Positions 8,578 through 36,123 of a stretch of DNA of 36,123 bases are shown one piece after another. The position numbers were made by a program, and so were the translations under genes. The notes beneath the pieces were generated by a model that had not been told where the DNA came from, ran no database searches, and worked only from the letters and a program-made list of their open reading frames with translations. This stretch comes from Acidimicrobiaceae bacterium (GTDB lineage: Bacteria > Actinomycetota > Acidimicrobiia > Acidimicrobiales > Bog-793), in contig DAHUZG010000078.1 in NCBI GenBank assembly GCA_027306715.1, positions 1-36,123 of the forward strand, in the 5' to 3' direction. How positions within the stretch are numbered: position 1 is the first letter of the stretch; the number at the start of each line of letters is the position of its first letter.

Positions 8578-8598
8578 CCTACTAGGACGAGAGGTAGG

Positions 8599-9489: not shown

Positions 9490-9607
9490 CGCGGCCGTAG
9501 CCGTCCCGCGGCGTGGACCGTAGCCCGCGTGGGCCCTGGGGGCCAATCTCGACCGGCAGCTCGGGGCGGGGAGGGGCGGGGGCCGCGTCGTCGCTCCGGG
9601 TGAGCCG

Positions 9608-9637
9608 ATTGACGCCGCGCCCCGGAGAGACCTACGT
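9608..9637 (+). promoter_or_regulatory. Candidate sigma-70-type promoter TTGACG-18-TACGTT upstream of the Amidohydro_2 A operon
   Basis: Read from the sequence. About 100 nt upstream of GTG 9740. Confidence 0.35.
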
Positions 9638-9739
9638 TCGCGGCGGGGCCGCCGTGCTGGCGGCAGGACGCGATGTCGGGGCAGCTGGCGCGGCCCGCCA
9701 GGCGAGCGTCGCCTCGTTGATCCGAAGGGGGGCCTGACC

Positions 9740-10816: not shown

Positions 10817-10856
10817 GCGATCCGGGGCCGGGTCGCTCCCGAGGGGCGACGGCCGG

Positions 10857-10885
10857 TTGACGCTGCCCGGGGCCGTCGGTACGCT
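10857..10885 (+). promoter_or_regulatory. Candidate promoter TTGACG-17-TACGCT upstream of the SDR/HCDH/CocE genes
   Basis: Read from the sequence. Same -35 hexamer as the 9608 candidate. Confidence 0.35.
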
Positions 10886-10890
10886 CACCA

Positions 10891-10902
10891 AGACACGTGT
10901 CT
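10891..10902. promoter_or_regulatory. Perfect 12-bp palindrome AGACACGTGTCT (candidate operator)
   Basis: Starts 5 nt after the candidate -10 at 10880-10885. Confidence 0.35.
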
Positions 10903-10951
10903 CAGCTGGTGGGAAGTGTCACCCGTTCGCAATATTGAGGTGGGGGGGACG

Positions 10952-12684: not shown

Positions 12685-12738
12685 CCGGCAACGGCTCACG
12701 TTCGTCCCCCCTGCGAGCCCCTGCGAGAAAGGCACGAC

Positions 12739-14583
12739 ATGGCCAGAACCCCGCCGAGCGACCTGCTGCTCAACTCGCCCGAGATGCCTCCGCCGGCCTA
12801 CGACCGGCCGCCACAGTACGAGGGCATGGTCTGGGAGCGGGACGTGATGATCCCGGCGCGCGATGGCGTCGGGCTGTGCGGCGACATCTACCGACCCGAC
12901 GCCGAGGGCAGGTTCCCCGTCCTTCTCGCCTTCGCCCCGCACAACAAGGACCTGCAGACCCCCGACGCCACCGAGCGGGCGCCGGCGATCGGTCCTCAGC
13001 CGGCCTACTCGGCGTGGTGGATGGGTGCTCAGGAGGCAGGCGACACCCGCTTCTTTGTCTCGCGCGGCTACGCGCATGCCACGTTCAACCCCCGTGGGAT
13101 CGGCAAGTCCGACGACGGCCCGGACGTCGAGAGCCCGTGGATCGGCGCCCGCTACGACGTCTATGACGTCATCGAGTGGCTGGCGGCCCAGCCCTGGTGC
13201 GACGGCAACGTCGGGATGATCGGCATCTCCGCCTTCGGCAGCTCGCAGTTCCACGCCGCCACGCTCGAGCCGCCGCATCTCAAGGCGATCTTCCCCTACG
13301 ACCCGGGGTCCGCCTACGGCGAGATGGTGACGGGCTTTCGCGACATGTACCCGGGCGGGGTGGTGCACCCGTTCATCTACTTCCTCGACCCCCTCGGCGT
13401 GGCGCACCTGCATCGGGGCCAGCCGCCGGGGCTCGAGGGGGAGCGGCTGGAGCGCTGGCTGGCGGCCGTCGACAACCCCGACTTCCGGATGTACCTCAAC
13501 CTCTACAACGTGCTCACCCAGCGAGGCGAGCACACGCCGTACATCTTCGACCTGCTGCTGAACCCCTACGACAGCGAGGAGTGGATGCGGGTCTCGGAGG
13601 AGAGGTTCCCGAAGGTCAAGCTGCCCGCCTACACCGGCTGCGGCTGGTACGCCTACTCCTACAAGACTCACATGCAGGGTTGCCAGCACTGGTTCGACAA
13701 GCTGCAGGGCGAGAAGAGGCTGCTGTTCACCGGTCCGGCGCACCTCGAGCGACCCTGGCACGCCTTCCACAACGAGGTGCTGCGCTGGTACGACTACTGG
13801 CTGAAGGGCATCGACACCGGGATCACCGACGAGCCCAGGGTGAAGTACTGGCTGATGGGCGCCAACGAGTGGCGGCTCGGCGACGACTGGCCCCTGCCGC
13901 AGACGAGGTGGACCAAGCTCTACCTCTCGAGCTGGGGGCGGTTGCGCGCCGAGCCGTTCCCGCCGTCGAGCCGCGACGATCTCGAGGAGCCGGACGCCTT
14001 TGTCCAGATGCCGCCGACCCAGACACGCGAGGTGGCCTCGCTGCGCTACATGACCGACCCGTTGCCCCACGACGTCGAGATCACCGGGCCCTCGGTGCTC
14101 AACCTCTACGCCTCGGTCGACCAGGACGACACCAACTGGATCATCATCTTGAAAGACGTCGGGCCCGACGTCTCGGTCCGCACGGCGCGCGAGGGCGAGA
14201 CGGCGGTCCCCGGGGACCTTCCCGAGCGCGAGCTCGTGCGCGGCTGGCTGAAGGCGTCGCACCGGGCGATCGACGGGTCGCGCTCGAAGCCGTGGAAGCC
14301 CTGGCACCCGCTCACCCGCGAGGCCCAGCAGCCGGTCGTGCCCGGAGAGGTGACGGAGTACTCGATCGAGATCCTGGCGACCTCGAACCTGTTCAAGGCC
14401 GGCCACCGGATCTGTGTCGAGATCACGAGCATGGACATGCCGACCGGCACGGCCGGATTCCACAACGTCGAGTACTTCCCCTACCACGTCTGCAGCTCCC
14501 AGACGACCCTTCACAAGGTGCACCACTCGAGCCGCTATCCCTCGCACCTGCTCGTCCCCGTGATCCCTGCGGGCGATGACTGA
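12739..14583 (+). CDS. CocE/NonD family (peptidase S15) hydrolase, paralogue 1
   Basis: S15 alpha/beta-hydrolase core (NPRGIGKSDDG, QPWCDGNVGMIGISAFG nucleophile elbow) plus a C-terminal beta-sandwich domain (…HRICVEITSMD…). Confidence 0.85.
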   Translation: MARTPPSDLLLNSPEMPPPAYDRPPQYEGMVWERDVMIPARDGVGLCGDIYRPDAEGRFPVLLAFAPHNKDLQTPDATERAPAIGPQPAYSAWWMGAQEAGDTRFFVSRGYAHATFNPRGIGKSDDGPDVESPWIGARYDVYDVIEWLAAQPWCDGNVGMIGISAFGSSQFHAATLEPPHLKAIFPYDPGSAYGEMVTGFRDMYPGGVVHPFIYFLDPLGVAHLHRGQPPGLEGERLERWLAAVDNPDFRMYLNLYNVLTQRGEHTPYIFDLLLNPYDSEEWMRVSEERFPKVKLPAYTGCGWYAYSYKTHMQGCQHWFDKLQGEKRLLFTGPAHLERPWHAFHNEVLRWYDYWLKGIDTGITDEPRVKYWLMGANEWRLGDDWPLPQTRWTKLYLSSWGRLRAEPFPPSSRDDLEEPDAFVQMPPTQTREVASLRYMTDPLPHDVEITGPSVLNLYASVDQDDTNWIIILKDVGPDVSVRTAREGETAVPGDLPERELVRGWLKASHRAIDGSRSKPWKPWHPLTREAQQPVVPGEVTEYSIEILATSNLFKAGHRICVEITSMDMPTGTAGFHNVEYFPYHVCSSQTTLHKVHHSSRYPSHLLVPVIPAGDD

Positions 14584-14634
14584 GCGCCCGGGAACGCCAC
14601 GACGGCCGGCGAGCCGGCGAGAGGAGGGTGTCCG

Positions 14635-16350
14635 ATGATCGGGACGACGTGGGCGACCTCGCCGCGCCAGTACCGGGCGAAGCTCGAGGAGAAGGTGATG
14701 ATCCCGGTCAGCGCCGGGCACTCGCTCGAGGCCCAGGTCTACCGGCCGGCGGCAGACGGCCGCTTCCCGGCGATCCTCTCGCCGTCGCCCTACGCCTACG
14801 CCGACCAGGTGGCGCCGCTCGTGCCCGAGGCCTTCTCGCACCGGCGCGGGCACATCGAGGCCGGCGACCCGTATTTCTACGCCCGGCGCGGCTACAGCCA
14901 CGTGCTCGTCAACCTGCGCGGGACGGGCGGCTCGGGCGGGGAGTTCGACAACCTCGGCCACGGCTCGATCGACGACATCTGCGACGCCGTCGGCTGGCTC
15001 GCCTCGCAACCGTGGTGCGACGGGCAGGTGGCGATGTTCGGAGCTTCGTACTTCTCGCTCGTCGCCAACCACGTCGCTGCCCGCCAGCCGGAGGGGCTCG
15101 CGTGCGTCTTCGCCCCTTTTGCCTGGACCGACGCCTACCGCGACCGCTACTACCACGGCGGGATCCTCAACCACGGCTTCACCAAGGCGTGGTTCGCCAC
15201 GCTCCCGCCGACCCGCTTCGCCGGGGGAGGCCTGCGCCAGCGCTGGGGCGAGGAGCGCTACCAGCAGGCGCTGGCGGCCGCCAAGGCCGACCCCGAGCTC
15301 ACCGCCGTGCCGTTCCTCGTCGATGTGCTCGAGGACCCCGATCAAGGTGGCAACCGGTTCATCATCGAGCTGCTGCTGCAGCCCTTTGACGGCGAGTTCT
15401 ACCGTGAGCGCTCGGTCGACTACAGCCTCGGCTCGACGGTGCCCGGCTACTTCGGCGCCTGCTGGGGCGTCTACGGCAACCACCTGCCGGGTGCGTTCCG
15501 CAGCTATGGGAGCTGGGCCGGCCCGCGCAAGCTGACGATCGGGCCGCCGATCTACCTCGACCGCCCGCTCTACCAGTACGCCCACGAGTCGCTTCGCTTC
15601 TTCGACCACTTCATGAAGGGCAACGACACGGGGCTGTTCGACGAGCCGCCGATCACGCTGTTCGTCGACGGCGGGCGGGGCGAGTGGCGCACCGCCGAGA
15701 GCTGGCCGCTGCCCGAGACCCGGTGGACCCCCTTCTACCTGCACGAGGGGGGGCTTTTGAGCGAGCACGAGCTGTGGCCCGGCGAGTCGCCGTCGGGCTA
15801 CGCCGACTCCCCGTTCGAGCGCGGCGAGGTGAGCTTCACGACCCCCCCGATGGTCGAGGCGACGGAGGTCTGCGGACCGATGGCGCTCAAGCTGTGGGCC
15901 TCGACGACGGCACGGGACGCGCTGTTCTTCGTCTCGTTGTTCTACATCGACCCGGCCGGAGGGGAGCGCCTGCTCACCCGCGGCTGGCTGCGCGCCTCGC
16001 AGCGCGAGATCGACCCAGAACGCTCGCTGCCGTGGGCCCCGTACCATTCGCACACCCGCCGCCAGCCGCTCGAGCCCGAGGAGGTGTACGAGCTCGACAT
16101 CGAGGTGCGCCCGTACGCCATCCTCCTCGAGCCGGGCGCCCGGCTCCGCCTGCGGATCAAGAGCGCCGACGACGAGACGCCGAAGACGGCGCTCGAGGCG
16201 ATCGCCCAGGGTCATCTGCACGGCGCCAGCCACGCTCGGATCCGGATCTTCCACGACGACGAGCGGCCGTCGCACCTCCTGCTCCCGATCACGCGTGGCA
16301 ACCGGATCGGCACCTACGTCTCCGGTGGCGTGCAGGAGCCGCCCGGCTGA
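14635..16350 (+). CDS. CocE/NonD family (peptidase S15) hydrolase, paralogue 2
   Basis: NLRGTGGSGGEF and QPWCDGQVAMFGASYFS nucleophile elbow. C-terminal beta-sandwich (…ARLRLRIKSADDE…). Confidence 0.85.
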   Translation: MIGTTWATSPRQYRAKLEEKVMIPVSAGHSLEAQVYRPAADGRFPAILSPSPYAYADQVAPLVPEAFSHRRGHIEAGDPYFYARRGYSHVLVNLRGTGGSGGEFDNLGHGSIDDICDAVGWLASQPWCDGQVAMFGASYFSLVANHVAARQPEGLACVFAPFAWTDAYRDRYYHGGILNHGFTKAWFATLPPTRFAGGGLRQRWGEERYQQALAAAKADPELTAVPFLVDVLEDPDQGGNRFIIELLLQPFDGEFYRERSVDYSLGSTVPGYFGACWGVYGNHLPGAFRSYGSWAGPRKLTIGPPIYLDRPLYQYAHESLRFFDHFMKGNDTGLFDEPPITLFVDGGRGEWRTAESWPLPETRWTPFYLHEGGLLSEHELWPGESPSGYADSPFERGEVSFTTPPMVEATEVCGPMALKLWASTTARDALFFVSLFYIDPAGGERLLTRGWLRASQREIDPERSLPWAPYHSHTRRQPLEPEEVYELDIEVRPYAILLEPGARLRLRIKSADDETPKTALEAIAQGHLHGASHARIRIFHDDERPSHLLLPITRGNRIGTYVSGGVQEPPG

Positions 16351-20113: not shown

Positions 20114-20149
20114 CCGGAGGATGCCCCGGAGGATGCCCCGGAGGATGCC
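20114..20149. repeat. 12-bp tandem repeat CCGGAGGATGCC x3
   Basis: Copies at 20114-20125, 20126-20137 and 20138-20149, in the leader of the ABC-transporter operon. Confidence 0.9.
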
Positions 20150-20190
20150 GGAGCGCTGCAGCGTTGCAGCAAAGCAGAGGGGGAAACGAC

Positions 20191-21291
20191 ATGCGCAAGT
20201 CAGGGTCGGGCTCCACGCGTCTTGCAGCCGGTGGTCGGCGCTGGACCGCCGGGGCGCTCGTCGCAGCAGCGGCGGCGCTCGCGGTCATGCCGGGCGCGGC
20301 CTCGGCGACGGGGCGAGCTACCGTTCGTGATGCCGGAGCCCGACCGGCGGCGACGCGACATGTGGGCCGGCACTACACGATCGGCTTCATCCTCGCCTCC
20401 CCGGTATCGGCCTTGATCGACATGGGCAACGGCGTGCAGGGTGAGGCGAAGCGGCTCGGGATGGGTTTTGACTACGAGAGCGCTAGCTTCTCCTCGAGCA
20501 CCCAGCTCTCGGCGATGAGCTCGATGATCGCCCGCCACGTCAGCGCCATCATCACCTCACCGCTTGTCACGAAGTCCTTCGAGACCTCGATCGAGCAGGC
20601 GAAGAAGGCGGGCATCCCGGTCCTCGTCTACGACGGCTCCGACCCGGGGCTCACGATGGACATGACCAACGCCGACTACCAGGCCGCCTACGACATGGTG
20701 GGCTACGTCGCCAAGCATCTGAGGTCCGAGCACAAGCCGTGCGACATCGCCCTGCTGCAGGGCCTGCCGGTCGTTCCGGCACTGGGCAACCGGGACAAGG
20801 GGATGGTCGCCGGCGCCAAGGCGAACCACTGCACCGTGCTCGGCACCCAGGTCGACACCGCCGACACGCTGAGCTCTGCAGCGACGATCGCAGATCAGTG
20901 GAAGAGCCAGTTCGGCAGCAAGCTCGAGGCGATCATCCCGTACAACGACGGCGCGGCGCTCGGCGTCGTCTCGGCGGTCAGCTCGAGCTTCAACCCGGTC
21001 GTCGTCGGGTTCAACGGCGAGCCGCAGAACGTCAAGGACGTCGCCGCCGGCAGGCTCTGGGAGGACTACGCGCTGCAGAACACGATCATGGGCGAGGGCC
21101 TCGCCTGGGCGGCGTACCAGGTGCTCACCGGCCACAAGGTGCCGGTGACGGTGTACTCCCCGTACGTGTTGCTGACCAAGTCGAATGCGGCCAGCTACAA
21201 GGGCGATACGTACTTCCTGGCGCACCCGCCGAAGTCGTTCTCGATCATCAGGTACAAGGGGCAGTGGCAGCTCAAGTACTCGGGTTCCTGA
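20191..21291 (+). CDS. Sugar ABC transporter substrate-binding protein (ribose/xylose-type periplasmic binding protein fold)
   Basis: N-terminal signal with RRWTAGALVAAAAALAVMPGAASA, then a type-I PBP core (IGFILASP…, KKAGIPVLVYDG). ATG 20191 follows AGAGGGGGA. Confidence 0.8.
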   Translation: MRKSGSGSTRLAAGGRRWTAGALVAAAAALAVMPGAASATGRATVRDAGARPAATRHVGRHYTIGFILASPVSALIDMGNGVQGEAKRLGMGFDYESASFSSSTQLSAMSSMIARHVSAIITSPLVTKSFETSIEQAKKAGIPVLVYDGSDPGLTMDMTNADYQAAYDMVGYVAKHLRSEHKPCDIALLQGLPVVPALGNRDKGMVAGAKANHCTVLGTQVDTADTLSSAATIADQWKSQFGSKLEAIIPYNDGAALGVVSAVSSSFNPVVVGFNGEPQNVKDVAAGRLWEDYALQNTIMGEGLAWAAYQVLTGHKVPVTVYSPYVLLTKSNAASYKGDTYFLAHPPKSFSIIRYKGQWQLKYSGS

Positions 21292-26668: not shown

Positions 26669-26742
26669 GGGGGCGTAGCTCAGCTGGTAGAGCGCTTGAC
26701 TGGCAGTCAAGAGGTCCGAGGGTTCGAGTCCCTTCGCCTCCA
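26669..26742 (+). tRNA. tRNA-Ala (anticodon GGC)
   Basis: Hand-folded. Acceptor GGGGGCG/CGCCTCC with the Ala identity pair G3:U70, U8, D arm GCTC-AGCTGGTA-GAGC, anticodon arm CTTGA-CTGGCAG-TCAAG (anticodon GGC), T arm GAGGG-TTCGAGT-CCCTT, discriminator A. CCA is not fully encoded (ACCG). Confidence 0.85.
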
Positions 26743-26831
26743 CCGTAAAAGGCCTGGTAGACGCCAAAAAGTTTCCTTCTTCGGAGCAGTCACCGCTTCC
26801 CTGTCCCAACAAAATCCCAACCTTCGGGGGG

Positions 26832-28265
26832 GTGGCGGTGACACGCCAGGGCAGTAGGTTGCGTTCGATGACGACCGACGAGGCAGCTCAGACGCCGGGT
26901 GCTGATCCCTCCGGTGACCCACGGGGCCGAGGACGCACCAAGGCTGGGTTGCGGGAGCTCCGGCGAGGCGTGTACGAGATTCGCACTTTTGTCGGCAAGG
27001 ATCCACTGACCGGCAAGAGGCTGCAGCGCTCAGAGACGTTCCACGGCGGATACCGCGACGCCGTGCGACGACGAGCACAGCTCGTTGCCGAATCGCAGCA
27101 GGCCAAGCGCGCAACCTCGGGAGCAACGGTCGGTGATCTGCTGGAAGCTTGGTTGGCGCGTTGCGAGGAACGTCGTGCCGCCGGCGATCTGTCGGCCAAC
27201 ACAATCGCCTCGTATCAATACCAGCAGCGTCGTTTGCGTGAGTTGGCGCCCGCGTTCCTCGCGCTGCGACTTGACCGGATCGACACCGCACAACCCGTCG
27301 AAGAGCTGTTGAGCGGGCTTCGACGTTCGGGCGTTACCGACGCCGGGCTTGTGCAGACGCACAAGGCGCTACGTGCAGCATTCGAATGGGGGATCGGGCA
27401 CAAGTGGCTGCGATGGAACCCTGCTAAGTACCTCGATGCGACACCGCGACCGCCCGAGAAGAAGACGCCGAAGGCGACAGTCGAAGACGTGAAACGGCTG
27501 ATTGAAATTGCTCCCAGCGTCCATCCCGACCTCGGCGCCTACTTCCTACTAGCAGCGCTGACGGGCTTGCGACGTCAAGCTCTTTGCGGTCTCCGTTGGT
27601 CCGACATCGATGCGGAAGGCCAACAGCTCACCGTCAATCGAGTCCGGAACGTGGTCTGGGGTAAAACCGTCGACCAGGAGTTCTCGAAGCACCGCCGCTC
27701 GAAGGAAAAGCCTGTGAAATGGCTCGACCCGATCGCGGTTGACACGCTCGGGGCCCTCCGCGAGGCGCAGCGCCGCCGCTGCGTCGAGTCTGTGACGACG
27801 CCACCAGACGATGGATGGGTGTTCAGCGCTGACGGCCTCGGCCTCACGCCGATGAATCCCGACTTCGTGCAACGGCGTGTGAAGCGGGCGGCAGACCTCG
27901 CAGGGTTGCCGCATCGCTCACACGACATGCGGCACCACCGGGCGACGGAGCTCATCGGCGCCGGTGTTGACGTCGGGCGCGTTGCCGACGAACTCGATCA
28001 TCGTGACAAGTCGTTCACGCTGCGTACCTACGTCGGGTCGCACCCAGCGGGCGAGGGTGCAATGGCCGGACTCGGCCGGCGTTACGTCGACCTAGAGCGA
28101 GCGAACATCGAAGTGGTCCCGGCTGTCGCAGCCGTGATGCCGGCGCAGGACCTGTTCGTGAACGACACCGGACAGAGCACCCCGGATCGGCCTCGTCGCG
28201 CCCCGGCGCCATGCGGCTCCGGCTCGACGACAGCCAATCCCAGACGCAATCCGGCTCGTCGTTAG
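26832..28265 (+). CDS. int: Tyrosine-type site-specific integrase
   Basis: Catalytic signature GLRRQALCGLRWSDI (Arg), HDMRHHRATELI (HxxR), FTLRTYVGS (Tyr). N-terminal SAM-like/core-binding region. Start uncertain (GTG 26832, GTG 26838 or ATG 26868). Confidence 0.9.
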   Translation: MAVTRQGSRLRSMTTDEAAQTPGADPSGDPRGRGRTKAGLRELRRGVYEIRTFVGKDPLTGKRLQRSETFHGGYRDAVRRRAQLVAESQQAKRATSGATVGDLLEAWLARCEERRAAGDLSANTIASYQYQQRRLRELAPAFLALRLDRIDTAQPVEELLSGLRRSGVTDAGLVQTHKALRAAFEWGIGHKWLRWNPAKYLDATPRPPEKKTPKATVEDVKRLIEIAPSVHPDLGAYFLLAALTGLRRQALCGLRWSDIDAEGQQLTVNRVRNVVWGKTVDQEFSKHRRSKEKPVKWLDPIAVDTLGALREAQRRRCVESVTTPPDDGWVFSADGLGLTPMNPDFVQRRVKRAADLAGLPHRSHDMRHHRATELIGAGVDVGRVADELDHRDKSFTLRTYVGSHPAGEGAMAGLGRRYVDLERANIEVVPAVAAVMPAQDLFVNDTGQSTPDRPRRAPAPCGSGSTTANPRRNPARR

Positions 28266-28495
28266 CTCATGACCTTGCCGGTTGTCGCGAGGAACCGCTG
28301 CAAACCGTCATGACTTACAAGGTGTCGTCTCCCGAGGCGGAAAGCGCCCGGCAACCTACCTTGAAGCGCCAGCTTGCGAGCGTGTTCTGCCGAGATGCGT
28401 AGAAGCACCGCGGCCTCAGCCAACGTAAGAACCGTAGGCGGGTTGAGATCAGTCCGGCGATCACCTTCGTATCGATGCGGTCCAAAATGTTGCAT
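28262..28495 (-). CDS. Excisionase-family helix-turn-helix DNA-binding protein (Xis-like)
   Basis: VLTLAEAAVLLRISAEHARKLALQGRLPGAFRLGRRHLVSHDGLQRFL matches the excisionase/MerR-type HTH pattern. Called from ATG 28495 (77 aa) because the longer track ORF to 28729 overlaps the upstream gene by 200 nt. Stop overlaps the int stop (convergent). Confidence 0.6.
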   Translation of the reverse strand: MQHFGPHRYEGDRRTDLNPPTVLTLAEAAVLLRISAEHARKLALQGRLPGAFRLGRRHLVSHDGLQRFLATTGKVMS

Positions 28496-28529
28496 AGGCA
28501 GCGCTAACTCGCCTTGCACTTTGAGCACC

Positions 28530-29078
28530 TTACCGCTTCTCGAGTTCGGAGCATGAGTGCTCGGATTTACCATGAATGCCATCGCGATTGGCTGCTTCCA
28601 TTGTGCCGTGGGCCGCAGCGGATGTCGAACTCGTCTCTTGAGCAAGCGCCACCACCTGCCCGGTGGCGCGTAGGACCGCCTCGGCGACAAGACGAGCGTT
28701 TCTGACGTCGAGTCCACATAGAGCTTCATTTAGGTCGACCGGGGATCCGCACGCCAAACTCGCGGCGAGGCCCAATACCTGACCCTCAGTGGCCGAGCAC
28801 CCAAGTTCGCCGCGCTCGAGCGCGTCAAAACACGCAGTCCAACGCACCACCGCCATCCGCGTAGAGCCGTCCTGCTCGACGAACCTAACCATGAAATCGC
28901 TGCTGAAGAGCAGGGTGCGGTGGGCGATGAGCAACTCCACGGCTGCTTCGGCGCAGTAGACGCCGCTTGCCCGATTCCTTAGCGCGCATGCGAGTCTGTC
29001 GCCAAGCTGCGGGGACCGCATCGGGTCGACCGTCTCAACCTCGCGCTGATGCGCGCCGATCGTCGTCTGCCGTGTCAT
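28530..29078 (-). CDS. Hypothetical protein, translationally coupled to the Prim-Pol gene
   Basis: ATG 29078-29076 overlaps the Prim-Pol stop 29077-29075 (ATGA). No motif recognised. The last ~30 codons lie in a lower-GC stretch, so the true 3' end is uncertain. Confidence 0.5.
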   Translation of the reverse strand: MTRQTTIGAHQREVETVDPMRSPQLGDRLACALRNRASGVYCAEAAVELLIAHRTLLFSSDFMVRFVEQDGSTRMAVVRWTACFDALERGELGCSATEGQVLGLAASLACGSPVDLNEALCGLDVRNARLVAEAVLRATGQVVALAQETSSTSAAAHGTMEAANRDGIHGKSEHSCSELEKR

Positions 29079-30757
29079 GGCGCGATATCTACGCTCGGCG
29101 GCGCAATCGACGACGGCACTTCGAAGCTGAGGGGTATCACCATGGACTCATGCTCGGCCATCGATTTTCGCAATGGATCGGTGTCGAGCCCGTGCTGTTC
29201 GGCCGCCTCGGCCCCGACGAGTTCTCTCAACTTGTCTTCATGCGTGGCGACGCGTCGCGACGTCGCGCCCCAAGCCGCTCTATCGAGGTCGTTGAAACGC
29301 TTCGTACCGCTCGTCTTCTCGGGGTCCACCAAGCTGGCAATCGCACGAGGTTGCTTCTCGCCGGCTCGAAGTCCCGACGCGATGGTGCACAGCGCCTCGC
29401 GCTCGTCCAGCCCAGCACTCCGCGCGGCGTCGACCAGCCGATCACGGGCGTCATCCTGAGTCAGCAACCGCGCGCCGATGAGAGTCCCAAGTGAGAACGC
29501 GGCGGTGTTGAGCCGATGATTGCGTCCGCCTTCTGGCGTCGATGCAACCGCCGCGCACTCCGATTCGACGGCTGCCCGCACGTAGTGCGAGCTCGTCAAT
29601 CGCACAGGCTCGGTCGGGCGCGAAGGTGACTGGTGATGCGGTGAGAGCCGCTCGACCAGCCACCCGGGCACGGCGGGAAGCGACTGGCCCAAGAGCGTCG
29701 TCGACAGCGCTCCGGTCGCCTCGTCGAGGAACTGGTAGCGCCAGCCGCCGGGATGCACCGACGGCGGGGCGACGACGTAGCCGCCGCGACCGCGCACGTC
29801 GACGCCGGGAAGCACCGCGACGCGCGACGCCAAGCCCTGCGAGGCGAACCACAGGTGCCACCCCCGCCCGGTCTTCACGACGACGCCGGCGCCGGGGTCG
29901 CCAGGGGCCGGGTCGAATAGCTCGGCCCGGGCGCCGGCGCTGTCGATATCGACCACGTCGAGGCCCTCGCCGGTGCGGATGCCGACGTTGGCGCGCCACG
30001 AGACTCTCCACCAGGTGTGGATCTTCTCCTCTGAGGTTGTCGCCTCGAGAAGTCCCCGGGGCACGAGCCGGCCGTCGGGCACCTTGTCCCCGGCGCGAAG
30101 CGGCAGCACGGCCCAGCCGCGCCGGGCGTAGCTGAGCGCTGCGGCAAGAAGCGGGTTCACCGCCTCGGCCACCATCTGCTGGTGGGCGAGCGCGGCGCCC
30201 GGCCCGAGGCGAGAGACACCGCGTGTGGGGGGAAGCATCGTGCGGACCTCGAGGCTGGCGTCGGGGCCGAAGCGGACGAGCTCGAAGTGGCACAGCCGCG
30301 AGAGCGTCGCTGCCATCGGGGCGTTTCGTGACAGGCTCGGCGAGAGCCCGAGGTCACGGGCGAGCTCGGCGAGATCGACGACGGCGCTGTCAGGCTGTCG
30401 CTTGAGCTCTCGTGCGAGCCGGCGCAGGCACCACGTCGCCGACGGCCCGATCACCGGGAGCCAGCAGCGCTCGACGTAGGGATGCGTCGGTGAGAAGCGT
30501 GCCTGCGCAGTACCTTCTTGTGACGCCTCCCCATACGGCAGAAGCTTGACGAAGCGCTCGATCGGGCTGGCGCCGCTTCCTGTCCGGTCGATCACGATGG
30601 GCCGGACCGGCTCCGGCCCTCGGGTCCGCTCCCGGGTGCCCGGACCGCTCGCCGGACGAGGAAGCAGGCGCGTCGCGCCGGGGGGCGCCGGCGCCCGCTC
30701 TGACGACTGTGGGAGATGCCGGACGCCGGAATCGTGTTGTCGGAGGTCGTTGTCCAT
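29075..30757 (-). CDS. Bifunctional DNA primase/polymerase (Prim-Pol, archaeo-eukaryotic primase superfamily) replicase
   Basis: GWAVLPLRAGDKVP, VGIRTGEGLDVVDIDS (DxD), GGYVVAPPSVHPGG in the centre. C-terminal GGRNHRLNTAAFSLGTLIG helical region common in actinobacterial element replicases. Extra ~150-aa N-terminal region. Confidence 0.85.
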   Translation of the reverse strand: MDNDLRQHDSGVRHLPQSSERAPAPPGATRLLPRPASGPGTRERTRGPEPVRPIVIDRTGSGASPIERFVKLLPYGEASQEGTAQARFSPTHPYVERCWLPVIGPSATWCLRRLARELKRQPDSAVVDLAELARDLGLSPSLSRNAPMAATLSRLCHFELVRFGPDASLEVRTMLPPTRGVSRLGPGAALAHQQMVAEAVNPLLAAALSYARRGWAVLPLRAGDKVPDGRLVPRGLLEATTSEEKIHTWWRVSWRANVGIRTGEGLDVVDIDSAGARAELFDPAPGDPGAGVVVKTGRGWHLWFASQGLASRVAVLPGVDVRGRGGYVVAPPSVHPGGWRYQFLDEATGALSTTLLGQSLPAVPGWLVERLSPHHQSPSRPTEPVRLTSSHYVRAAVESECAAVASTPEGGRNHRLNTAAFSLGTLIGARLLTQDDARDRLVDAARSAGLDEREALCTIASGLRAGEKQPRAIASLVDPEKTSGTKRFNDLDRAAWGATSRRVATHEDKLRELVGAEAAEQHGLDTDPLRKSMAEHESMVIPLSFEVPSSIAPPSVDIAP

Positions 30758-30776
30758 GTCCGAAGGTTGACAAGTC

Positions 30777-30916
30777 GACTTCCCGAACAGGTTCCCGATC
30801 GGATTCGAAGCGAGTTCCCGTTTCGCGTTTCGGGTGGATTTTCATCGTTCGGTCCAACCGGTCCGGCCTTTGCGGGGTTCCCGATCGCCGCAGAGAAGCG
30901 CTTCGACTTCCCGGTC
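30777..30916. repeat. Five dispersed copies of the same TTCCCG(A) motif upstream of the Prim-Pol gene
   Basis: Perfect TTCCCGA at 30780, 30792 and 30878. TTCCCG at 30815 and 30908. Same orientation as the 35.4-kb array. Confidence 0.85.
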
Positions 30917-30942: not shown

Positions 30943-33486
30943 TCAGCGGTAGGGGGTGCGGCGCGGCAGCCTCGCCGGCGGTCCCTTGGTGCTGAGGCCG
31001 TTGTAGAGGGACTCGATGCGAGGATCGACCTCTTCGCCGAGCCCGAGCTCGTCGACGGCGTCGACAGCTTTGTAGAACTCGGACTCGATCCCGTCCTCGT
31101 CATCTGACGCCGCGGCGAGGCGAAGTGCGGCTTCACAGAGCGGCTCGGACTCAGGAGCGACGACGCGGCCCTTTCTGATCGCCCACGCCGCGTCGGCAAG
31201 GCTCGAGGGTGACGGGCGGTGGGTGATCGCCAGCAGTGCCATCTGATGCGCCGCGTGGACAACCGCGGTCTCGAGCTCGACGAGGAACTGCTCGGCGTCA
31301 AGGAAGCTGTAGCGCCCGATAACCGAGCGGTCCGAGCAGGGCGGACCGTCGTCTGAGATCAGCTCGAGAGCTTGGCGAAGCGCCTCGATCGCCTCTCTCG
31401 GCCGGCCGGCGCGCTCGAGGCTCCGCCCGATCGCGGCGATCTCGATGAACCGCAGCCAGTCACAGCTCACCGAGCAGTCGAGCCCGTACGGGCGGCCGCC
31501 CACGGCGTGCGGGAAGCGCTCCGGTCCGAGCGCGGCGCGGACCTTGGAGACGGCGTTGTGCACCGTCTTGGCGGCGCGGCTGACGTCGCGCTGGTAGTTG
31601 CCGAGCACGTCGCGCAGCTGCTCGGTCGTCGCTCGGTAGCTGTGAAGTGCCAGGTAGGCGGTCACCTGGACGACCTCGGGCGCGACGTTGTCGGCGACGT
31701 CGCCGACGAGGTCGGGAACCGGCCGGAGAAGGCGAAGCTCGACCGGCCCGGCGGCCGGAAGCTCGCTCGCCGGGTCGGGGAGCACCTCGTCCGCCGCTGT
31801 CACCGGCGGCAGCGGTGCCTGAGACGCGGCGGCCGACAGGCGCAGCACCGCGGCCAGCTCCGAGCGCGTCGGGAGTACAGCCGGAAGGGTGATCCCGAGC
31901 GGCTCGATGCTAAGCGTCGGTCCCTCGTAGACAACGACCCGGTCGGCGTCGAGCATCGTCCCGATCACCGCCACGATGCCGGGCGCTCTCGCCCGGACCT
32001 CGCCAGCGGTCTCGGGGTCCGCCACGATCACGACCGGCTGGCTCTCGGGAAGCCCCGCCCGCCAGAGCGGGTCGCGCCGGCTCGCCTCGGCGAGCCCGGC
32101 GACGACATCGACGCTCAGCTCGAGCATCTCCTCCGAGCCAACAAAGCTCGCCTCACCGACGCGGTAAAGCTCGACCTCGCCCCAGGGGGCAGCTTTGGCG
32201 TGTGCCCAGACTGCGCCGAGAGCGCGCTCCATCTCGTCGTCGGTGCCTCTGAAGGCGACCGACTCGCCCGGCCCGCAGGCAACGAGGTAGCTGCCGTCGT
32301 CGTCCTCGGCGACAGGTATCAGCACCGCCAGGTACGGCTGAGCCTCGCCGGCACCGGCGCGAAGCTCGTCGAGGTCGAGAGACGGGTCGAGGCGAAGACA
32401 GCGCCCCTCTGACTCAAGGACAAAGCCCGGCGGGGCCTCACTGAGTGCCTCGTCGAGCAGCAGCTCGATCCCGCGCGGCCCGGCGCGGACAAGGCTCACC
32501 CTCGGTGCCTCGATCCCGGGGTCGGCGAGCAGCCCGGCACAGAGGAGGCGGTTGGCGCCGTCGATGAAGTCGGGCAGCTCGGCGAGCTCGAGCGGCCGCA
32601 GCTCTGCCTCGATGGCGGCATCGGCGTCGGACAGCCGGGGCGGCGACCCGCCGGGCTGTCCTCGCATCTGCTGGAGGCGGCGCAGGCGGCGAAGCCTCCG
32701 GGCCAAGATCGCACAGCCGAGCAGGCCGAGACCGGAGAGGGCGGCGTAAAGCTCGACCGCCCGGAGCGAGCCGCTGGCGCTTTGGCCGGCGGGTCGGTTG
32801 CCGGGCCGGCTGGCCGCTCCGCTGCCTGCCCGGTTGCGAGTGCTTCCCTGAGGCGAGCGGGCGGCGCCGGGCAGCTCGATGGTCGTCCCGGCGTGCAGCA
32901 GGCTCGGATCCGACATCCTCGTGCCGGCGCCGGTGCGGCTCGGGTTGGCGGCGGTGATCCGCGGCCAGTCGAGTGGCGAGCCGTAGGCCTGCTCGGCGAG
33001 CGTGGTGATCGTGTCGCCGGGCCGGGTGACATACCGAGGCGTAGCCGCCGCCGCTGTCGGGGTGGCCGGGCCGCGAGGGGCGGCTGCGGGGGCGGCGATG
33101 CCCGACGCCGGCGCTGGCGCAGCCCCCGCGCCGGCGTGGGGAAGCGCCGGGCTCGACAGCGAGAGCAACAGTCCGACCACCGGTCCGGCGAGAGCTGCGG
33201 TCCAGGCGTAGCCGCTCCGTCGCCGTGTCGGCTCTTCGCCCGAGGCCTCGTCGAGGCCGGCGCGCACGTCGAGATAGATAAGGCGCGTCCCGTACGCCCA
33301 GCCGACGAGCACGACGGCCGAGAGCCCGAGTCCGAAGTAGATGAGGAGATGGTGCTGTGTCAGCACCAGGTGGTCGGCGAGGTCGCCGACGAACCACCCG
33401 ACGAGCAGTCCGACCCCGATCCAGCACAGGCCGAGGATCGAGAGCCCGAGACTTCTGAGCAGCCGAGCGCCAGCGCCCGCCGTCAT
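30943..33486 (-). CDS. Polytopic membrane protein with extracytoplasmic LysM domain and cytoplasmic SARP-type regulator (wHTH + BTAD)
   Basis: Three N-terminal hydrophobic helices, then LysM (YVTRPGDTITTLAEQAYGSPLDWPRITAANP…LHAGTTIELPG) and a fourth helix followed by RRLRRLRRL. SARP-like region: VELRLLRPVPDLVG…TTEQLRDVLG…VSKVRAALG, then a BTAD-like helical domain. ATG 33486 overlaps the upstream stop (ATGA). Confidence 0.8.
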   Translation of the reverse strand: MTAGAGARLLRSLGLSILGLCWIGVGLLVGWFVGDLADHLVLTQHHLLIYFGLGLSAVVLVGWAYGTRLIYLDVRAGLDEASGEEPTRRRSGYAWTAALAGPVVGLLLSLSSPALPHAGAGAAPAPASGIAAPAAAPRGPATPTAAAATPRYVTRPGDTITTLAEQAYGSPLDWPRITAANPSRTGAGTRMSDPSLLHAGTTIELPGAARSPQGSTRNRAGSGAASRPGNRPAGQSASGSLRAVELYAALSGLGLLGCAILARRLRRLRRLQQMRGQPGGSPPRLSDADAAIEAELRPLELAELPDFIDGANRLLCAGLLADPGIEAPRVSLVRAGPRGIELLLDEALSEAPPGFVLESEGRCLRLDPSLDLDELRAGAGEAQPYLAVLIPVAEDDDGSYLVACGPGESVAFRGTDDEMERALGAVWAHAKAAPWGEVELYRVGEASFVGSEEMLELSVDVVAGLAEASRRDPLWRAGLPESQPVVIVADPETAGEVRARAPGIVAVIGTMLDADRVVVYEGPTLSIEPLGITLPAVLPTRSELAAVLRLSAAASQAPLPPVTAADEVLPDPASELPAAGPVELRLLRPVPDLVGDVADNVAPEVVQVTAYLALHSYRATTEQLRDVLGNYQRDVSRAAKTVHNAVSKVRAALGPERFPHAVGGRPYGLDCSVSCDWLRFIEIAAIGRSLERAGRPREAIEALRQALELISDDGPPCSDRSVIGRYSFLDAEQFLVELETAVVHAAHQMALLAITHRPSPSSLADAAWAIRKGRVVAPESEPLCEAALRLAAASDDEDGIESEFYKAVDAVDELGLGEEVDPRIESLYNGLSTKGPPARLPRRTPYR

Positions 33487-34496
33487 GAGGAAGCTCCGGG
33501 CGTCGCCGTCATCAGCTGGACGAAGATCGGGTAGGAGACGACCTCGTCTGTCGCCACGGCCTCGCTGAGGGTCAGCTGGCAGGACCCGCCCGGGGAGTCG
33601 AGCGAGACGAACAGACCGTTCGCGCCGAGCTGCTCGGCCGACGCGGTCCCGCAGCTGAGGCGCAGCCGCAGCGTCGCCTGCCCCGACCAGCTGACGTCCG
33701 CGCTGAGCGGCCCCGGAGCCGTCGTCATCTGACGAGTCGTCGAGTAGAACGGCGGAGCGAGCTTGCCGCTCGTCGTGCGAGTCGTGCTCGTCGGCGCCAG
33801 AGTCGTCGTGGTCGTCGTGGTCGTCGTGGTCGTCGTGGTCGTCGTGGTCGTCGTCGTTGTCACGGTCGTGGTCGGCACCCTGCGTGCCGGCGCGCTCGTG
33901 GGGGGCGCCTTTCGTGCCGGGGCGCTCGTCGTCGAATGGCGCGGCGGCAGCGCGGTCGTGGCTGTTGTTGCACCGGGGTTCCGGTGGCGTGCGCCGGCGT
34001 GGCGGGTCGGCGCGGTGGTCAGATGAGCGCCGACGTCGCGCCGGTGCAGGGAAGCGCCGGAGCTTCGCTGCAGCCGCGGCACTGCCGCCGTGCTCGTGGG
34101 AGCAGCGGTTGCGGGCGCGGTCGCCGCCGCCGTGGTGGTCGCGAGCGGCGCGGTGCTTGCCCTGGTGGTCGTGGTTGGCATGGTTGTCGTCGGCGCCGTG
34201 CTCGTCGTCGCGGAGGCACGAGTGCTCGTCCTCCGCGGCGAGGTAGTAGTCGCCGCCGTCGTCGTTGCACCGCTCGGGTGCGAGGTCGTCGTGTCGTTCC
34301 GGCCGGTGGTGTGTAAACGGCTCGGCGGATCGGACCGGCCCCCCGACGCACCGGAGCGCCCGTGCAGGGACGACGCTGCGATCCTGTTCGAGTTGAGCGA
34401 CTCGGCCACAACGGCGACGAGCACGACGCCGACAAGGACGCAGAACACGACGAGAAGGATCGGCCGCCGGCCGTTTCGTGACTCGCCGTTTGCCAT
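33483..34496 (-). CDS. Single-pass membrane protein with Thr/Ala/Pro-rich stalk and small C-terminal globular domain
   Basis: MANGESRNGRRP, then the helix ILLVVFCVLVGVVLVAVVA, about 200 aa of low-complexity Thr/Ala/Pro/Ser/Arg including a run of more than 20 Thr, then a ~85-aa Cys-containing domain (…VSWSGQATLRLRLSCGTASAEQLGANGLFVSLDSPGGSCQLTL…). ATG 34496 preceded by GGAGGCGAGG. Confidence 0.6.
   Translation of the reverse strand: MANGESRNGRRPILLVVFCVLVGVVLVAVVAESLNSNRIAASSLHGRSGASGGRSDPPSRLHTTGRNDTTTSHPSGATTTAATTTSPRRTSTRASATTSTAPTTTMPTTTTRASTAPLATTTAAATAPATAAPTSTAAVPRLQRSSGASLHRRDVGAHLTTAPTRHAGARHRNPGATTATTALPPRHSTTSAPARKAPPTSAPARRVPTTTVTTTTTTTTTTTTTTTTTTTTLAPTSTTRTTSGKLAPPFYSTTRQMTTAPGPLSADVSWSGQATLRLRLSCGTASAEQLGANGLFVSLDSPGGSCQLTLSEAVATDEVVSYPIFVQLMTATPGASS
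33802..33846. repeat. 9-bp tandem repeat GTCGTCGTG x5 (coding, poly-Thr on the minus strand)
   Basis: Perfect copies at 33802, 33811, 33820, 33829 and 33838. Degenerate continuation to about 33875. Confidence 0.95.
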
Positions 34497-34617
34497 CCTC
34501 GCCTCCGGTCGCAGAGCCGTCCCGCCCCCGACGGCCATCACCGCAGGCGCCCATACTGCACGAAGTTGCAGCTGAGCACATCACGACACGTCACCTGCAC
34601 GAGAGGGGCCCCGAGGC

Positions 34618-35382
34618 TCAGGCGCACAGCGCCGCCTCGGTCTTCTCCCGGCAGGCATAGAGGCTTCGCCGAGCCCCCGCCCCCGAGGCGACGAGCTCGT
34701 CGATCGAATAGCCGAGCACCCGTGTCTGAAACACGAGCCGCAGGCCCCTCCGGTCCTCGCGGGAGGCCCCGGGCGTGGTGAGCGCTACGGCGAGGTCCTC
34801 GAGGGTGCTCGCTCGCCGGGGCTGCTGCGGCCAACCTCCCTGGCGATCGCCAAGGACCGAGAGCGAGGCCTCCTCGGCCGAAGCCTCGCGGCGCGTCCGG
34901 CGCCGGTGGGAGTAGATCGCGTAGTCGAGGCGCCGGCGGACCCGACGGAGAAGCTCGCGCTCGGGGTACCCGAAGCTCTGCCCGGCCATCGAGAAAAGGC
35001 CGATCCAGGCCTCGCTCACCAGGTCGGCGGTGAACTCCGAGGCGTCTGTCCACGGGCCGTCCCCGCCCCAGCGAAGCTGCCGGCCGACGGCGATCAGGCC
35101 GGGGACGGCCCGGGCGAGAAGGCCGAGGGCGACCAGCTCGTCGAGTCCGGCACAGCGCACGAGCGCCGCGCTAGCAAGCAGGCGTGTCGAAGCGGGCAGT
35201 CCGAAGCGGGGGTCGAGCGTCGCGAACAGCCCGTCGAGGCTCGTCGCCCCAAGCGCTGAGAGATCGGGCTCGACGGCGACGAGCTCGCTGAGCAGCTCAG
35301 CAGAGCCTGCGGCTCGGCAGCGCCGGGACCATTCGGCGCGTAGGGAGGCGATCGGGTCGGTGGGCATCTGCGAAGGGTCCAC
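34618..35382 (-). CDS. ECF-like sigma-70 family protein candidate with N-terminal extension
   Basis: By-eye region-2-like ADLVSEAWIGLF…LLRRVRRRLDYAIYSHRRR and region-4-like LRLVFQTRVLGYSIDELVASGAGARRSLYACREKTEAAL. About 95 unassigned N-terminal residues. Start GTG 35382 or ATG 35367. Confidence 0.5.
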   Translation of the reverse strand: MDPSQMPTDPIASLRAEWSRRCRAAGSAELLSELVAVEPDLSALGATSLDGLFATLDPRFGLPASTRLLASAALVRCAGLDELVALGLLARAVPGLIAVGRQLRWGGDGPWTDASEFTADLVSEAWIGLFSMAGQSFGYPERELLRRVRRRLDYAIYSHRRRTRREASAEEASLSVLGDRQGGWPQQPRRASTLEDLAVALTTPGASREDRRGLRLVFQTRVLGYSIDELVASGAGARRSLYACREKTEAALCA

Positions 35383-35386
35383 GCCC

Positions 35387-35475
35387 GAGTTCCCGATCGA
35401 GTTCCCGATCGAGTTCCCGAACCGGTTTCCCGAGTTCCTTTTTTCCGCCGGTTCCCGACCCTCGACTTCCCGATC
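35387..35475. repeat. Array of six TTCCCGA-core motifs (consensus GA(G/C)TTCCCGATC), the first three as 12-bp tandem units
   Basis: Cores at 35390, 35402, 35414, 35427, 35452 and 35467, all in the same orientation. Lies in the divergent spacer between 34618-35382 (-) and 35598-35888 (+). Confidence 0.9.
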
Positions 35476-35597: not shown

Positions 35598-35888
35598 ATG
35601 ACAGCTGAGGATCCCTGCACCCGCGGCGACGACCCGCTCGAGGCCGTCCACATCGAAGCCCTCGCCGGCGAGCTGCGCCGAGCGGCGCTCCGCCTCGCCT
35701 GTGTGATCTGCGACCAGGCGTCGGCAGGCACTGGCGAGGCTCTCGTCGGGCTCGCCGACCTCGGTGGCTTCGCGCTGTGGGCGCTCGAGGCGGCGATCGA
35801 GGACGTCGTCGAGCTCCCCTCCCGCGCGGCGGCCTGTCGCGCGCCGGGCCCCTGTGAAGTTGCCTCTCGCATGGTGGTCGCGCCATGA
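35598..35888 (+). CDS. Hypothetical small acidic protein
   Basis: ATG 35598 lies 7 nt after a strong AAGGAGG. 96 aa, no recognisable motif. Stop overlaps the next start (ATGA). Confidence 0.45.
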   Translation: MTAEDPCTRGDDPLEAVHIEALAGELRRAALRLACVICDQASAGTGEALVGLADLGGFALWALEAAIEDVVELPSRAAACRAPGPCEVASRMVVAP

Positions 35889-36123
35889 CGCACAATGGGT
35901 GCATCGAGAACGCACTCGAAAAGATCAGAAGGCTACGACACCACCTCTGGCGCCCGGAGACCCGGCGCGGCCGGTGCGCCACGCCCGCTGCATCTTGCAA
36001 GCGCAGGCAGCTACTCGCCGCCGTGCTCTCCGCAGCCCTCGTCGGCGGCTTCTCGGGAACCCTCGCGGCGGCTCCTTTTGCTTTCGCCTCGGGCCCGGTC
36101 GCCGAGCAGGAAAGCTTCGGCTA
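35885..36123 (+). CDS. Hypothetical exported protein (3' end outside the window)
   Basis: Not in the ORF track because it has no stop in the window. Own translation from ATG 35885: MTHNGCIENALEKIRRLRHHLWRPETRRGRCATPAASCKRRQLLAAVLSAALVGGFSGTLAAAPFAFASGPVAEQESFG, open to the edge. Signal-peptide-like h-region ending AFA-S. Confidence 0.4.
   Translation, partial: MTHNGCIENALEKIRRLRHHLWRPETRRGRCATPAASCKRRQLLAAVLSAALVGGFSGTLAAAPFAFASGPVAEQESFG

Follow-up and report, generated by a model that had tools for sequence, protein, structure and literature searches.

A LysM/SARP-type membrane protein with a sigma-like and a threonine-rich partner: a candidate regulatory module of tRNA-integrating elements in uncultured Actinomycetota

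The window analysed here, positions 1 to 36,123 of contig DAHUZG010000078.1, is a stretch of high GC content (~70%) from an Acidimicrobiaceae bacterium that contains the left end of an integrative element at a tRNA-Ala gene. The element carries three co-directional genes on the minus strand, termed g1 (34618..35367), g2 (33483..34496) and g3 (30943..33486), which are predicted to encode a divergent sigma-like protein of the extracytoplasmic function (ECF) type, a threonine-rich single-pass membrane protein and a membrane protein that joins a LysM domain to a DNA-binding unit of the Streptomyces antibiotic regulatory protein (SARP) type. The trio is a real, conserved module of uncultured soil Actinomycetota. 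It is proposed, at a probability of roughly 0.45, to be a self-activating regulatory module of tRNA-integrating elements in uncultured, Acidimicrobiales-like Actinomycetota that also occurs free in some chromosomes.

Recurrence of the module and its repeat promoters

Related loci were gathered through g3, and all fetched loci were then searched locally with profile hidden Markov models of g1 and g2. Close relatives of g3 are few (nine clusters in 5.8 billion proteins, two GTDB species genomes and 12 metagenome contigs), and these belong to Acidimicrobiales and to metagenome bins labelled 'uncultured Actinomycetota'. In all 15 loci for which upstream DNA is available, the end domain of g2 is encoded directly upstream of g3. 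In ten loci, namely the window and those numbered L001, L002, L003, L006, L009, L012, L014, L018 and L019, the g2-g3 pair is in turn preceded by g1. The linkage to g1 reaches g3 homologues of only ~30% identity, and the distant loci L010, L013 and L015 encode g2 and g3 with no detectable g1. Because of this constant pairing of g2 with g3 and the recurrence of g1 in ten loci the trio is taken as a real module, and g2-g3 appears to be its older core. A first-pass annotation of this DNA, made from the letters with no database searches, had asked whether the sigma-like and threonine-rich partners, together with integrase and Prim-Pol genes, recur around g3 homologues. The partners do recur, and recombinases lie nearby in four loci, but Prim-Pol is found only in the window and in L001.

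The repeat word TCGGGAAC occurs ten times in the window against 1.64 copies expected, and six of these copies, all on the minus strand, fall in the two spacers on either side of the module, in agreement with the shared spacer motif noticed in the first-pass annotation. Upstream of g1 there are five TCGGGAA(C/G) direct repeats (35385..35473, minus strand), the three promoter-proximal copies of which keep an exact 12-bp period, followed by a -10-like hexamer, GACCCT (35374..35379, minus strand), which is separated from the last repeat core by 9 bp and from the g1 ATG by 6 nt. The spacer between g3 and the Prim-Pol gene contains five CGGGAA(C/G) repeats (30779..30914, minus strand) with the two proximal copies 12 bp apart, and the -10-like hexamer CAACCT (30764..30769, minus strand) keeps the same distances, 9 bp from the last core and 6 nt from the ATG, here that of Prim-Pol. 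Every lineage has at least three direct repeats with a 12-bp period upstream of g1, and the repeated word is lineage-specific: TCGGGAAC in the window, TCAGTAAC in L001, CGGTAAS or CAGGAAG in L002, GGGAAG in L006, L012 and L009, and CGTGAAT or CGTGAGG in L014, L018 and L019. The L001 word CAGTAAC is present in six copies (0.31 expected), all of which stand before g1, before Prim-Pol or immediately after g3, in the last case ahead of an inserted gene for 103 aa.

The layout of these promoters is invariant, with the last 8-bp core followed by 9 bp, a hexamer of the form nAnnnT (GACCCT, CAACCT, CACGGT, CACCGT, CAGAGT, or CACTGT as in L006 and L012), 6–7 nt and the start codon, and it is present at ten or more promoters in eight loci. 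A composite pattern that joins two cores at a distance of 12 bp to this layout (9 bp, nAnnnT, 6–7 nt and a start codon) gave ten matches in the 248 kb of the window and related loci compared with 0.025 in shuffled sequences, a figure that excludes only chance, the pattern having been derived from the same sequences with the exception of L011. Six matches stand before g1, two before Prim-Pol (window and L001) and two before xis-like genes (L006 and L011), with zero elsewhere in the 248 kb; the L011 match is independent in that this locus had not been inspected beforehand. In L009, a related array precedes a small open reading frame (ORF) overlapping the gene for the serine recombinase, and another is located between g1 and g2 in L014. 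Inspection by eye found no obvious arrays in the distant g1-less loci L010, L013 and L015.

In actinobacteria, a hexamer that precedes the start codon by 6–7 nt is the arrangement of leaderless promoters, and the module promoters are predicted on this spacing to give leaderless transcripts. A scan with the sigma-70 consensus returned no promoter sites, and a terminator scan returned nothing above chance. Promoters bound by SARPs feature direct repeats in register with the helical turn, at 11 or 22 bp, and a gap of 8 bp between the 3' repeat and the -10 element (PMC10936776). The -10 element of afsS is CACTGT, and the SARP dimer occupies positions -19 to -40 and contacts region 4 of the sigma factor (PMC10936776). 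The layout found here appears SARP-like, the candidate targets having tandem repeats that overlap the -35 position just upstream of a weak -10 element such as CACTGT.

The tandem repeats adjoin the replication gene in the window and in L001, as they would if they were replication iterons bound by Prim-Pol and unrelated to the trio. Arrays are nonetheless found before g1 in seven loci that have no Prim-Pol gene (L002, L006, L009, L012, L014, L018 and L019), and they always keep a fixed distance to the start codon. The iteron explanation is considered extremely improbable and was rejected because of the arrays in loci without Prim-Pol.

Predicted products of the three genes

The last gene of the module, g3, encodes a membrane protein of 847 aa with four predicted transmembrane (TM) helices, a LysM domain, a pseudo-ATPase domain and a C-terminal SARP domain. 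The helices, the LysM domain and the SARP-type end had been recognised in the first-pass annotation, but the central domain had been missed. An AlphaFold2 (AF2) model places the helices at residues 4-39, 46-82, 93-110 and 241-275, with a predicted local distance difference test score (pLDDT) of 68 overall and 80-90 in the cytoplasmic domains. From the positive charges (RRR at 88-90 and RRLRRLRR behind helix 4), the LysM unit is predicted to face outwards, with the C-terminal 570 residues on the inner side of the membrane. The extracytoplasmic LysM domain spans residues ~150-207 (32866..33039, minus strand), where profile matches fall below the Pfam cut-off. A profile of the g3 family matches LysM proteins of the PDB with E-values of 4.9e-4 and 1.3e-3, the LysM region of a PHROG endolysin family matches g3 (E=2.5e-6), and the AF2 model features a small beta-alpha-alpha-beta unit at residues 151-204 (pLDDT ~73). 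Taken as a domain assignment, this LysM appears weak but real. A g3 homologue with 56-58% identity, P0005 (L002, 10001-12388), has lost the whole LysM segment, so wall binding would be dispensable in at least one lineage.

The central cytoplasmic alpha/beta domain of g3 (residues ~300-560; 31807..32589, minus strand) exhibits an FtsK/EccC/RecA-like fold in Foldseek searches. The matches include EccC (4nh0, E=3.7e-5), an ESX-3 component (6umm_E, E=5e-5) and FtsK (6t8g, E=2.9e-3), as well as EssC and KaiC. Like the FtsK/SpoIIIE, EccC and TraB ATPases, g3 has this RecA-like fold directly after the membrane helices. Unlike them, it has a degenerate P-loop position (LVACGPGES...RGTDDEM, with no GK[ST]), and the Walker A motif GxxxxGK[ST] is absent in all eight aligned family members, in which the equivalent stretch reads ...YLVACGPGES-LAVRG-SEDEM...; the Pfam FtsK_SpoIIIE model also does not match g3. 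The domain is predicted to be a pseudo-ATPase because the Walker A lysine is missing across the aligned family.

The C-terminal SARP-type unit of g3 (residues ~575-835; 30982..31764, minus strand) is composed of an OmpR-type winged helix directly followed by a BTAD/TPR region, an order that is recognised by fold. Foldseek matches include AfsR (8hvr_I, E=8.3e-5, TM-score 0.69; 8k60_J, TM-score 0.73) and EmbR (2fez, TM-score 0.51), the whole unit superposing on AfsR and EmbR. The recognition helix of the winged helix is approximately KTVHNAVSKVRAAL, and we read the family stretch RTVWNATSxARxVLG as occupying the recognition-helix position of the OmpR family.

These features of g3 also bear on an improbable alternative, in which g3 is a structural, peptidoglycan-anchored scaffold similar to FimV/HubP or a decayed DNA-transfer protein of the TraB/FtsK type, g2 is its surface partner, and the repeats are bound by another protein, such as g1 or the small Xre-like one, or form a clt-like transfer locus. 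The succession of LysM, TM region, long cytoplasmic region and TPR end mirrors FimV/HubP (PMC12918733). Distant relatives of g3 form the last gene of actinobacterial Tad/Flp pilus loci (L004 and L007), on a metagenome contig and on Streptomyces plasmids, in accordance with a scaffold role. Streptomyces TraB reads 8-bp repeats, and the combination of an FtsK/EccC fold, a C-terminal winged helix and wall binding in g3 recalls TraB; no other FtsK-like gene is seen in the available parts of the elements. Against the alternative stand the absence of Walker A across the family, by which g3 cannot be a motor, the absence of pilus genes near the trio loci, the fixed distance of the repeats from start codons, which is the behaviour of a promoter and not of clt, and a C-terminal fold that fits the whole SARP unit and not the FtsK gamma domain. 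The specific reading of g3 as a TraB-like motor was rejected because Walker A is absent. Weak Foldseek matches to STAND/AVAST proteins had suggested a defence system as well, and PADLOC, which matched no known defence system, gives this no support.

The Tad-locus proteins share the domain order of g3, and one of them, P0010, has 29% identity over the winged-helix/BTAD end and 31% over the LysM region. Unlike g3, they are 1070-1160 aa long, contain two LysM domains, are located after TadE/TadG and have no g1 or g2 neighbours. The first-pass annotation would have been overturned had the trio been a routine accessory of a pilus locus; only the distant g3 relatives end such loci, without g1 or g2 homologues, so the trio is not a pilus accessory. 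No Tad genes are present in the annotated flanks of L001, L002, L003, L009, L010, L014 and L015 or, as far as these are partly annotated, of L011 and L012.

The second gene, g2, encodes a protein that begins with a 12-aa cytoplasmic tip (MANGESRNGRRP), followed by a TM helix, a Thr/Ala/Pro/Ser stalk of ~200 aa and an extracytoplasmic C-terminal domain of ~90 aa with two invariant Cys residues. This anatomy was correctly drawn in the first-pass annotation, as were the three co-directional ORFs on the minus strand and the ATGA (33483-33486) in which g2 and g3 overlap. The g2 gene is supported by its ORF, by comparison with homologues and by the GC content at third codon positions (GC3), which is 0.85 in the threonine-rich frame versus 0.56 and 0.74 in the other two frames. 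Across the loci the TM helix and the end domain are kept, the stalk is variable in length, and the cytoplasmic tail is 8-25 aa in all homologues. No match was found for g2 in Pfam, NCBIfam, PADLOC or PHROGs, and a profile of the C-terminal domain found no relative in Pfam or the PDB; this domain is new, with no known family or annotation. No anti-sigma family was identified in g2 or g3 using Pfam and NCBIfam, again as the first-pass annotation had it. A run of 20 threonines in g2 (33792-33865) is encoded by a 9-bp tandem DNA repeat, and the g2 frames of L001 and L002 are interrupted within stalk-type repeats, by either true frameshifts or long-read errors.

The first gene, g1, encodes a protein of 249 aa. 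Its start is set at ATG 35367, 15 nt downstream of the GTG at 35382 chosen in the first-pass annotation, because the conserved N-terminus of the family (M-x4-I-x2-LRxEW) and the sequence collection's own gene call both begin there; the gene itself stands. An N-terminal extension (~55-95 aa) is followed in it by a sigma2-like region at ~59-170, a disordered linker at 170-186 and a sigma4-like helix-turn-helix at 189-248. Direct searches of g1 against Pfam, NCBIfam, PADLOC and PHROGs gave no match. An exhaustive profile search gathered a family of 308 representative clusters at E<=1e-3, for which there is no Pfam model and no annotation. Most members are ~240 aa, and since the match covers them from end to end, the N-terminal part is a family feature as well.

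The Pfam scan and the large profile of this family used the best 150 of the 308 clusters. Sigma70_r4_2 is matched by 31 of the 150 (best E=3.7e-6) and by two of five close homologues of g1 (E=2.9e-4), g1 itself having no region 4 match, and one of the 150 matches Sigma70_ECF. Against the PDB, the 150-sequence profile identified CnrH with an E-value of 4e-8, aligning residues 35-188 (regions 2 and 4), and 13 of its 14 matches are ECF sigma factors; region 4 structures of SigC (E=1.2e-5), SigD and SigE are matched too. A five-sequence profile found nothing in the PDB. The AF2 model of g1 is all-helical (pLDDT 79), and its Foldseek matches among PDB and viral models are almost all sigma factors, at E>=0.06 and TM-scores of 0.2-0.44. 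From the profiles and the model we conclude that g1 probably belongs to the sigma-70 superfamily as a highly diverged member, built of two domains in the manner of ECF sigmas and extended at the N-terminus. No relatives of g1 or g3 were found in IMG/VR viral contigs, and g1 had no match in plasmids.

The main rival of the proposal made here gives g1 the leading part and is considered rather unlikely. It holds that g1 is a bona fide ECF sigma factor whose region 4 reads the GGAAC-like cores as a -35 element, that g2 and g3 form a membrane sensor or anti-sigma complex which retains g1 until there is a signal from the envelope, and that the winged-helix/BTAD end of g3 is a protein scaffold. The cores GGGAAC, GTAAC and GGAAG do resemble the GGAAC motif, a widespread -35 element of ECF sigma factors; the gene order of sigma factor, membrane protein, membrane protein is that of a classic ECF operon; the family is linked to ECF sigmas; and each repeat-word group has its own sigma4 recognition helix in g1, identical in all members of the group. 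A sigma factor would not, on the other hand, need three to five tandem copies at 12 bp, and nothing sets the copy at the -35 position apart from the rest. The nAnnnT hexamer is also of the housekeeping type and not of the CGT type of ECF promoters, an anti-sigma domain is undetectable with only 8-25 cytoplasmic residues in g2, and the g2-g3 pairs of L010, L013 and L015 lack g1.

Proposed function and comparison with known systems

In the proposed self-activating module, g3 would be anchored in the membrane, its LysM domain would fix it to the cell wall, and its FtsK/EccC-like pseudo-ATPase domain would serve oligomerisation or partner binding. The SARP end of g3 would bind the lineage-specific 12-bp direct repeats, which would replace the -35 element of leaderless promoters. 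One repeat promoter would drive g1-g2-g3, giving positive feedback, and the other would drive Prim-Pol-orf182-xis (28262..30757, minus strand), the probable target operon, with its replication and excision functions. From these two repeat promoters it is suggested that the module decides when the element wakes up. The g1 protein may act as a sigma factor or sigma-like adaptor working with the SARP domain at the repeat promoters, and g2, coupled in translation to g3 and exposed outside, may modulate g3 as ToxS and TcpH modulate ToxR and TcpP. The anatomy and folds of the genes' products, the co-occurrence of the genes and the architecture and distribution of the promoters are observed; the identity of the repeat-binding protein, the binding of RNA polymerase by g1, the role of g2 and the signal sensed are all inferred. 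That the module might control the element itself had been raised in the first-pass annotation, and this gains weight from the repeat promoters before g1 and Prim-Pol-orf182-xis in the window and, in relatives, before Prim-Pol, xis-like genes and a serine recombinase operon. The same annotation had called the module cargo, which does not fit its location, in at least six loci, 3–4 kb from a tRNA gene beside the integration, excision and replication genes, where it looks like core regulatory equipment. Sensing of the cell wall, also suggested there, may be a role of the circuit, although the LysM segment is missing from one homologue (P0005). A more far-reaching version, which we hold to be doubtful, is that the module is an undescribed master switch of mobile elements, in which the wall-anchored g3, the divergent sigma factor and the extracytoplasmic partner together read the repeats at leaderless promoters and make excision and replication in a family of actinobacterial integrative elements depend on the state of the envelope (e.g., contact between cells or damage to the wall).

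Several observations weigh against the proposed function. By sequence the two diagnostic domains of g3 are below threshold, LysM scoring 11.5 bits in Pfam against a cut-off of 20.9 and BTAD 18.9 bits against 22.1, and Trans_reg_C of Pfam was not detected in g3. The SARP unit is C-terminal on a protein with four TM helices, unlike every described SARP, and the repeats have a 12-bp period and a 9-bp gap to the -10 hexamer in place of the canonical 11 and 8 bp. Apart from the L011 match, the composite pattern was counted on the sequences that had defined it, and the transcription starts are placed by spacing alone. The repeat core is GGAAC-like and resembles the -35 element of ECF sigmas, so that the repeats could be read by g1; both recognition helices, that of g1 (sigma4) and that of g3, vary with the repeat word and track phylogeny, for which reason their co-variation cannot name the binder. 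The sigma assignment of g1 is itself uneven: the region 4-like stretch proposed in the first-pass annotation and the link to CnrH stand, but the region 2-like stretch has no Sigma70_r2 match in g1 or in any of the 150 scanned relatives, and with the 25 closest relatives as profile CnrH is still the best match at an E-value of only 0.016. In the Tad loci, finally, a structural role of the distant g3 relatives is as likely as a regulatory one.

SARPs are usually regarded as soluble activators of antibiotic gene clusters. The g3 protein shares with AfsR, ActII-ORF4, DnrI and EmbR of M. tuberculosis the OmpR-type winged helix followed by BTAD, and it differs from them in that the unit sits at the C-terminal and not the N-terminal end, is carried by a membrane protein that has four helices, a LysM domain and an FtsK-like pseudo-ATPase domain, and is encoded in a mobile element and not in an antibiotic gene cluster. 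Since its SARP unit is C-terminal and membrane-bound, g3 is not a described SARP type. If the proposal is true, the SARP family gains membrane-tethered C-terminal forms, one of them paired with its own sigma-like protein, a pairing of interest because SARPs act by contacting sigma region 4. The architecture of g3 recurs in the last Tad pilus gene, and the function of g3 may explain that gene too.

The build of g1, with a sigma2-linker-sigma4 fold behind an extra N-terminal segment, is similar to that of the group 4 ECF sigmas with N-terminal extensions (BldN/ECF121 and SigC/ECF36), and its gene is likewise followed by genes for membrane proteins. Such extensions occur in a few ECF groups (PMC7826278). 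Unlike these sigmas, g1 has no partner with an anti-sigma domain and its binding to RNA polymerase is only predicted. The module is not a canonical pair of ECF sigma and anti-sigma factor because it has no anti-sigma domain and no Sigma70_r2 match, and ECF classification rules would miss the g1 family.

The closest parallels for the pairing of g2 with g3 are ToxR-ToxS, TcpP-TcpH and CadC, in which an OmpR-type DNA-binding domain is tethered to the membrane and the extracytoplasmic part is paired with a small single-pass partner from an overlapping or adjacent gene. The likeness is an analogy only, and it differs in that the DNA-binding domain of g3 is C-terminal, with the topology reversed, in that g3 has four helices and in that there is no sequence relationship.

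To our knowledge, the control of excision and replication in integrative elements of Actinomycetota is known for only a few Streptomyces AICEs (integrative and conjugative elements of actinomycetes), through KorSA, Pra and Pif. The module would be a different, envelope-linked solution to this problem. Its promoters, with their repeats, -10 hexamer and start codon without a leader, would amount to a clear cis-element code by which the regulon is directly testable. Literature on LysM/BTAD proteins, membrane SARPs and sigma factors in AICEs yielded no description of this module.

The integrative element, its neighbours and related loci

The left end of the element (26669..28265) is composed of the tRNA-Ala(GGC) gene (26669-26744, plus strand) and a tyrosine integrase gene (26832-28265, plus strand; Pfam Phage_integrase, E=1.7e-18). 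The following genes are in the opposite orientation and comprise a gene for an HTH_17 excisionase-like protein (ORF 28262-28729, minus strand, with a likely start near 28495; Pfam HTH_17, E=2.9e-9, and a PHROG excisionase match), orf182 (28530-29078, minus strand) and the Prim-Pol replicase gene (29075-30757, minus strand; Pfam Prim-Pol, E=1.1e-29). The product of orf182 belongs to no family in Pfam or PHROGs, and it is probably translated together with Prim-Pol since its ATG overlaps the Prim-Pol stop codon (ATGA). The GC3 of the module and of the Prim-Pol, orf182 and xis genes is 0.81-0.85, below the 0.88-0.96 of the genes left of the tRNA. No attR that would repeat the tRNA end was detected, either in the window or in five related loci; the element extends past position 36123, with its right end outside the window, because no such copy is present within it. 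The portion of the element inside the window is 9.4 kb.

The tRNA-site tyrosine integrase, the HTH_17 excisionase-like gene and the Prim-Pol-type replication gene constitute the hallmark set of an AICE, and all are present in the window. In contrast to an AICE, the 9.4 kb of the element contains no FtsK/TraB-type translocase with intact ATPase motifs, no Spd, KorSA or Pra genes are seen in the available part, and the regulators are of a different kind.

Divergent from g1, a small gene encoding 96 aa (35598..35888, plus strand) is preceded by a strong AGGAGG Shine-Dalgarno sequence. L001, L006, L009 and L012 have a homologue in the same divergent arrangement, and that of L001 exhibits a weak match to HTH_31 (Xre-type), from which this gene may encode an element repressor that is a partner of the module. 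An ISL3-family transposase gene lies between the small divergent gene and g1 in L006 (6306-7412) and in L012 (607-1791).

A tRNA gene is located 3–4 kb beyond g3 in six loci, with a tyrosine or serine recombinase gene in between in four of them. The latter are the window (tRNA-Ala, tyrosine integrase), L006 (tRNA-Gly, tyrosine integrase and an xis-like gene), L009 (tRNA-Leu, large serine recombinase) and L011 (tRNA-Gly, tyrosine integrase); between g3 and the tRNA gene of L001 (tRNA-Glu/Gln) and of L015 (tRNA-Val) no recombination genes were identified. Ordinary metabolic genes surround the module in L014, L010, L015 and L002. L014 and L002 are plainly chromosomal, and L002 has no recombinase or Prim-Pol gene nearby. 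In L009, a small ORF (13983-14224) overlaps by ATGA the gene for the large serine recombinase (14221-15954), which abuts tRNA-Leu. The same locus has a tyrosine integrase gene at 3484-4572, and it may be an element with two recombinases.

The Tad-like cluster of L007 is found at positions 1-12720 of the Streptomyces anulatus linear plasmid NZ_CP109414.1. It is complete and encodes SAF, CpaF, TadB, TadC, a small ORF product of pilin size and TadE/TadG, ending in a LysM/SARP-like protein of 1164 aa, and it directly follows a gene of the 'replication-relaxation family'. A LysM/SARP-like protein of this type is encoded on 26 Streptomyces plasmids and may have a role in plasmid transfer.

At the far end of the window an ORF on the plus strand (~35990-36123) has a signal-peptide-like start, KRRQLLAAVLSAALVGGFSGTLAAAPFAFA, and continues off the window end; the equivalent place in L001 and L003 is occupied by genes for large secreted proteins with He_PIG, NHL and Big_3_5 domains. 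In the host part of the window, the 12-mer CCGGAGGATGCC is present as a perfect triple tandem at 20114-20149, just before the ORF at 20164-21291, and is unrelated in sequence to the module repeats.

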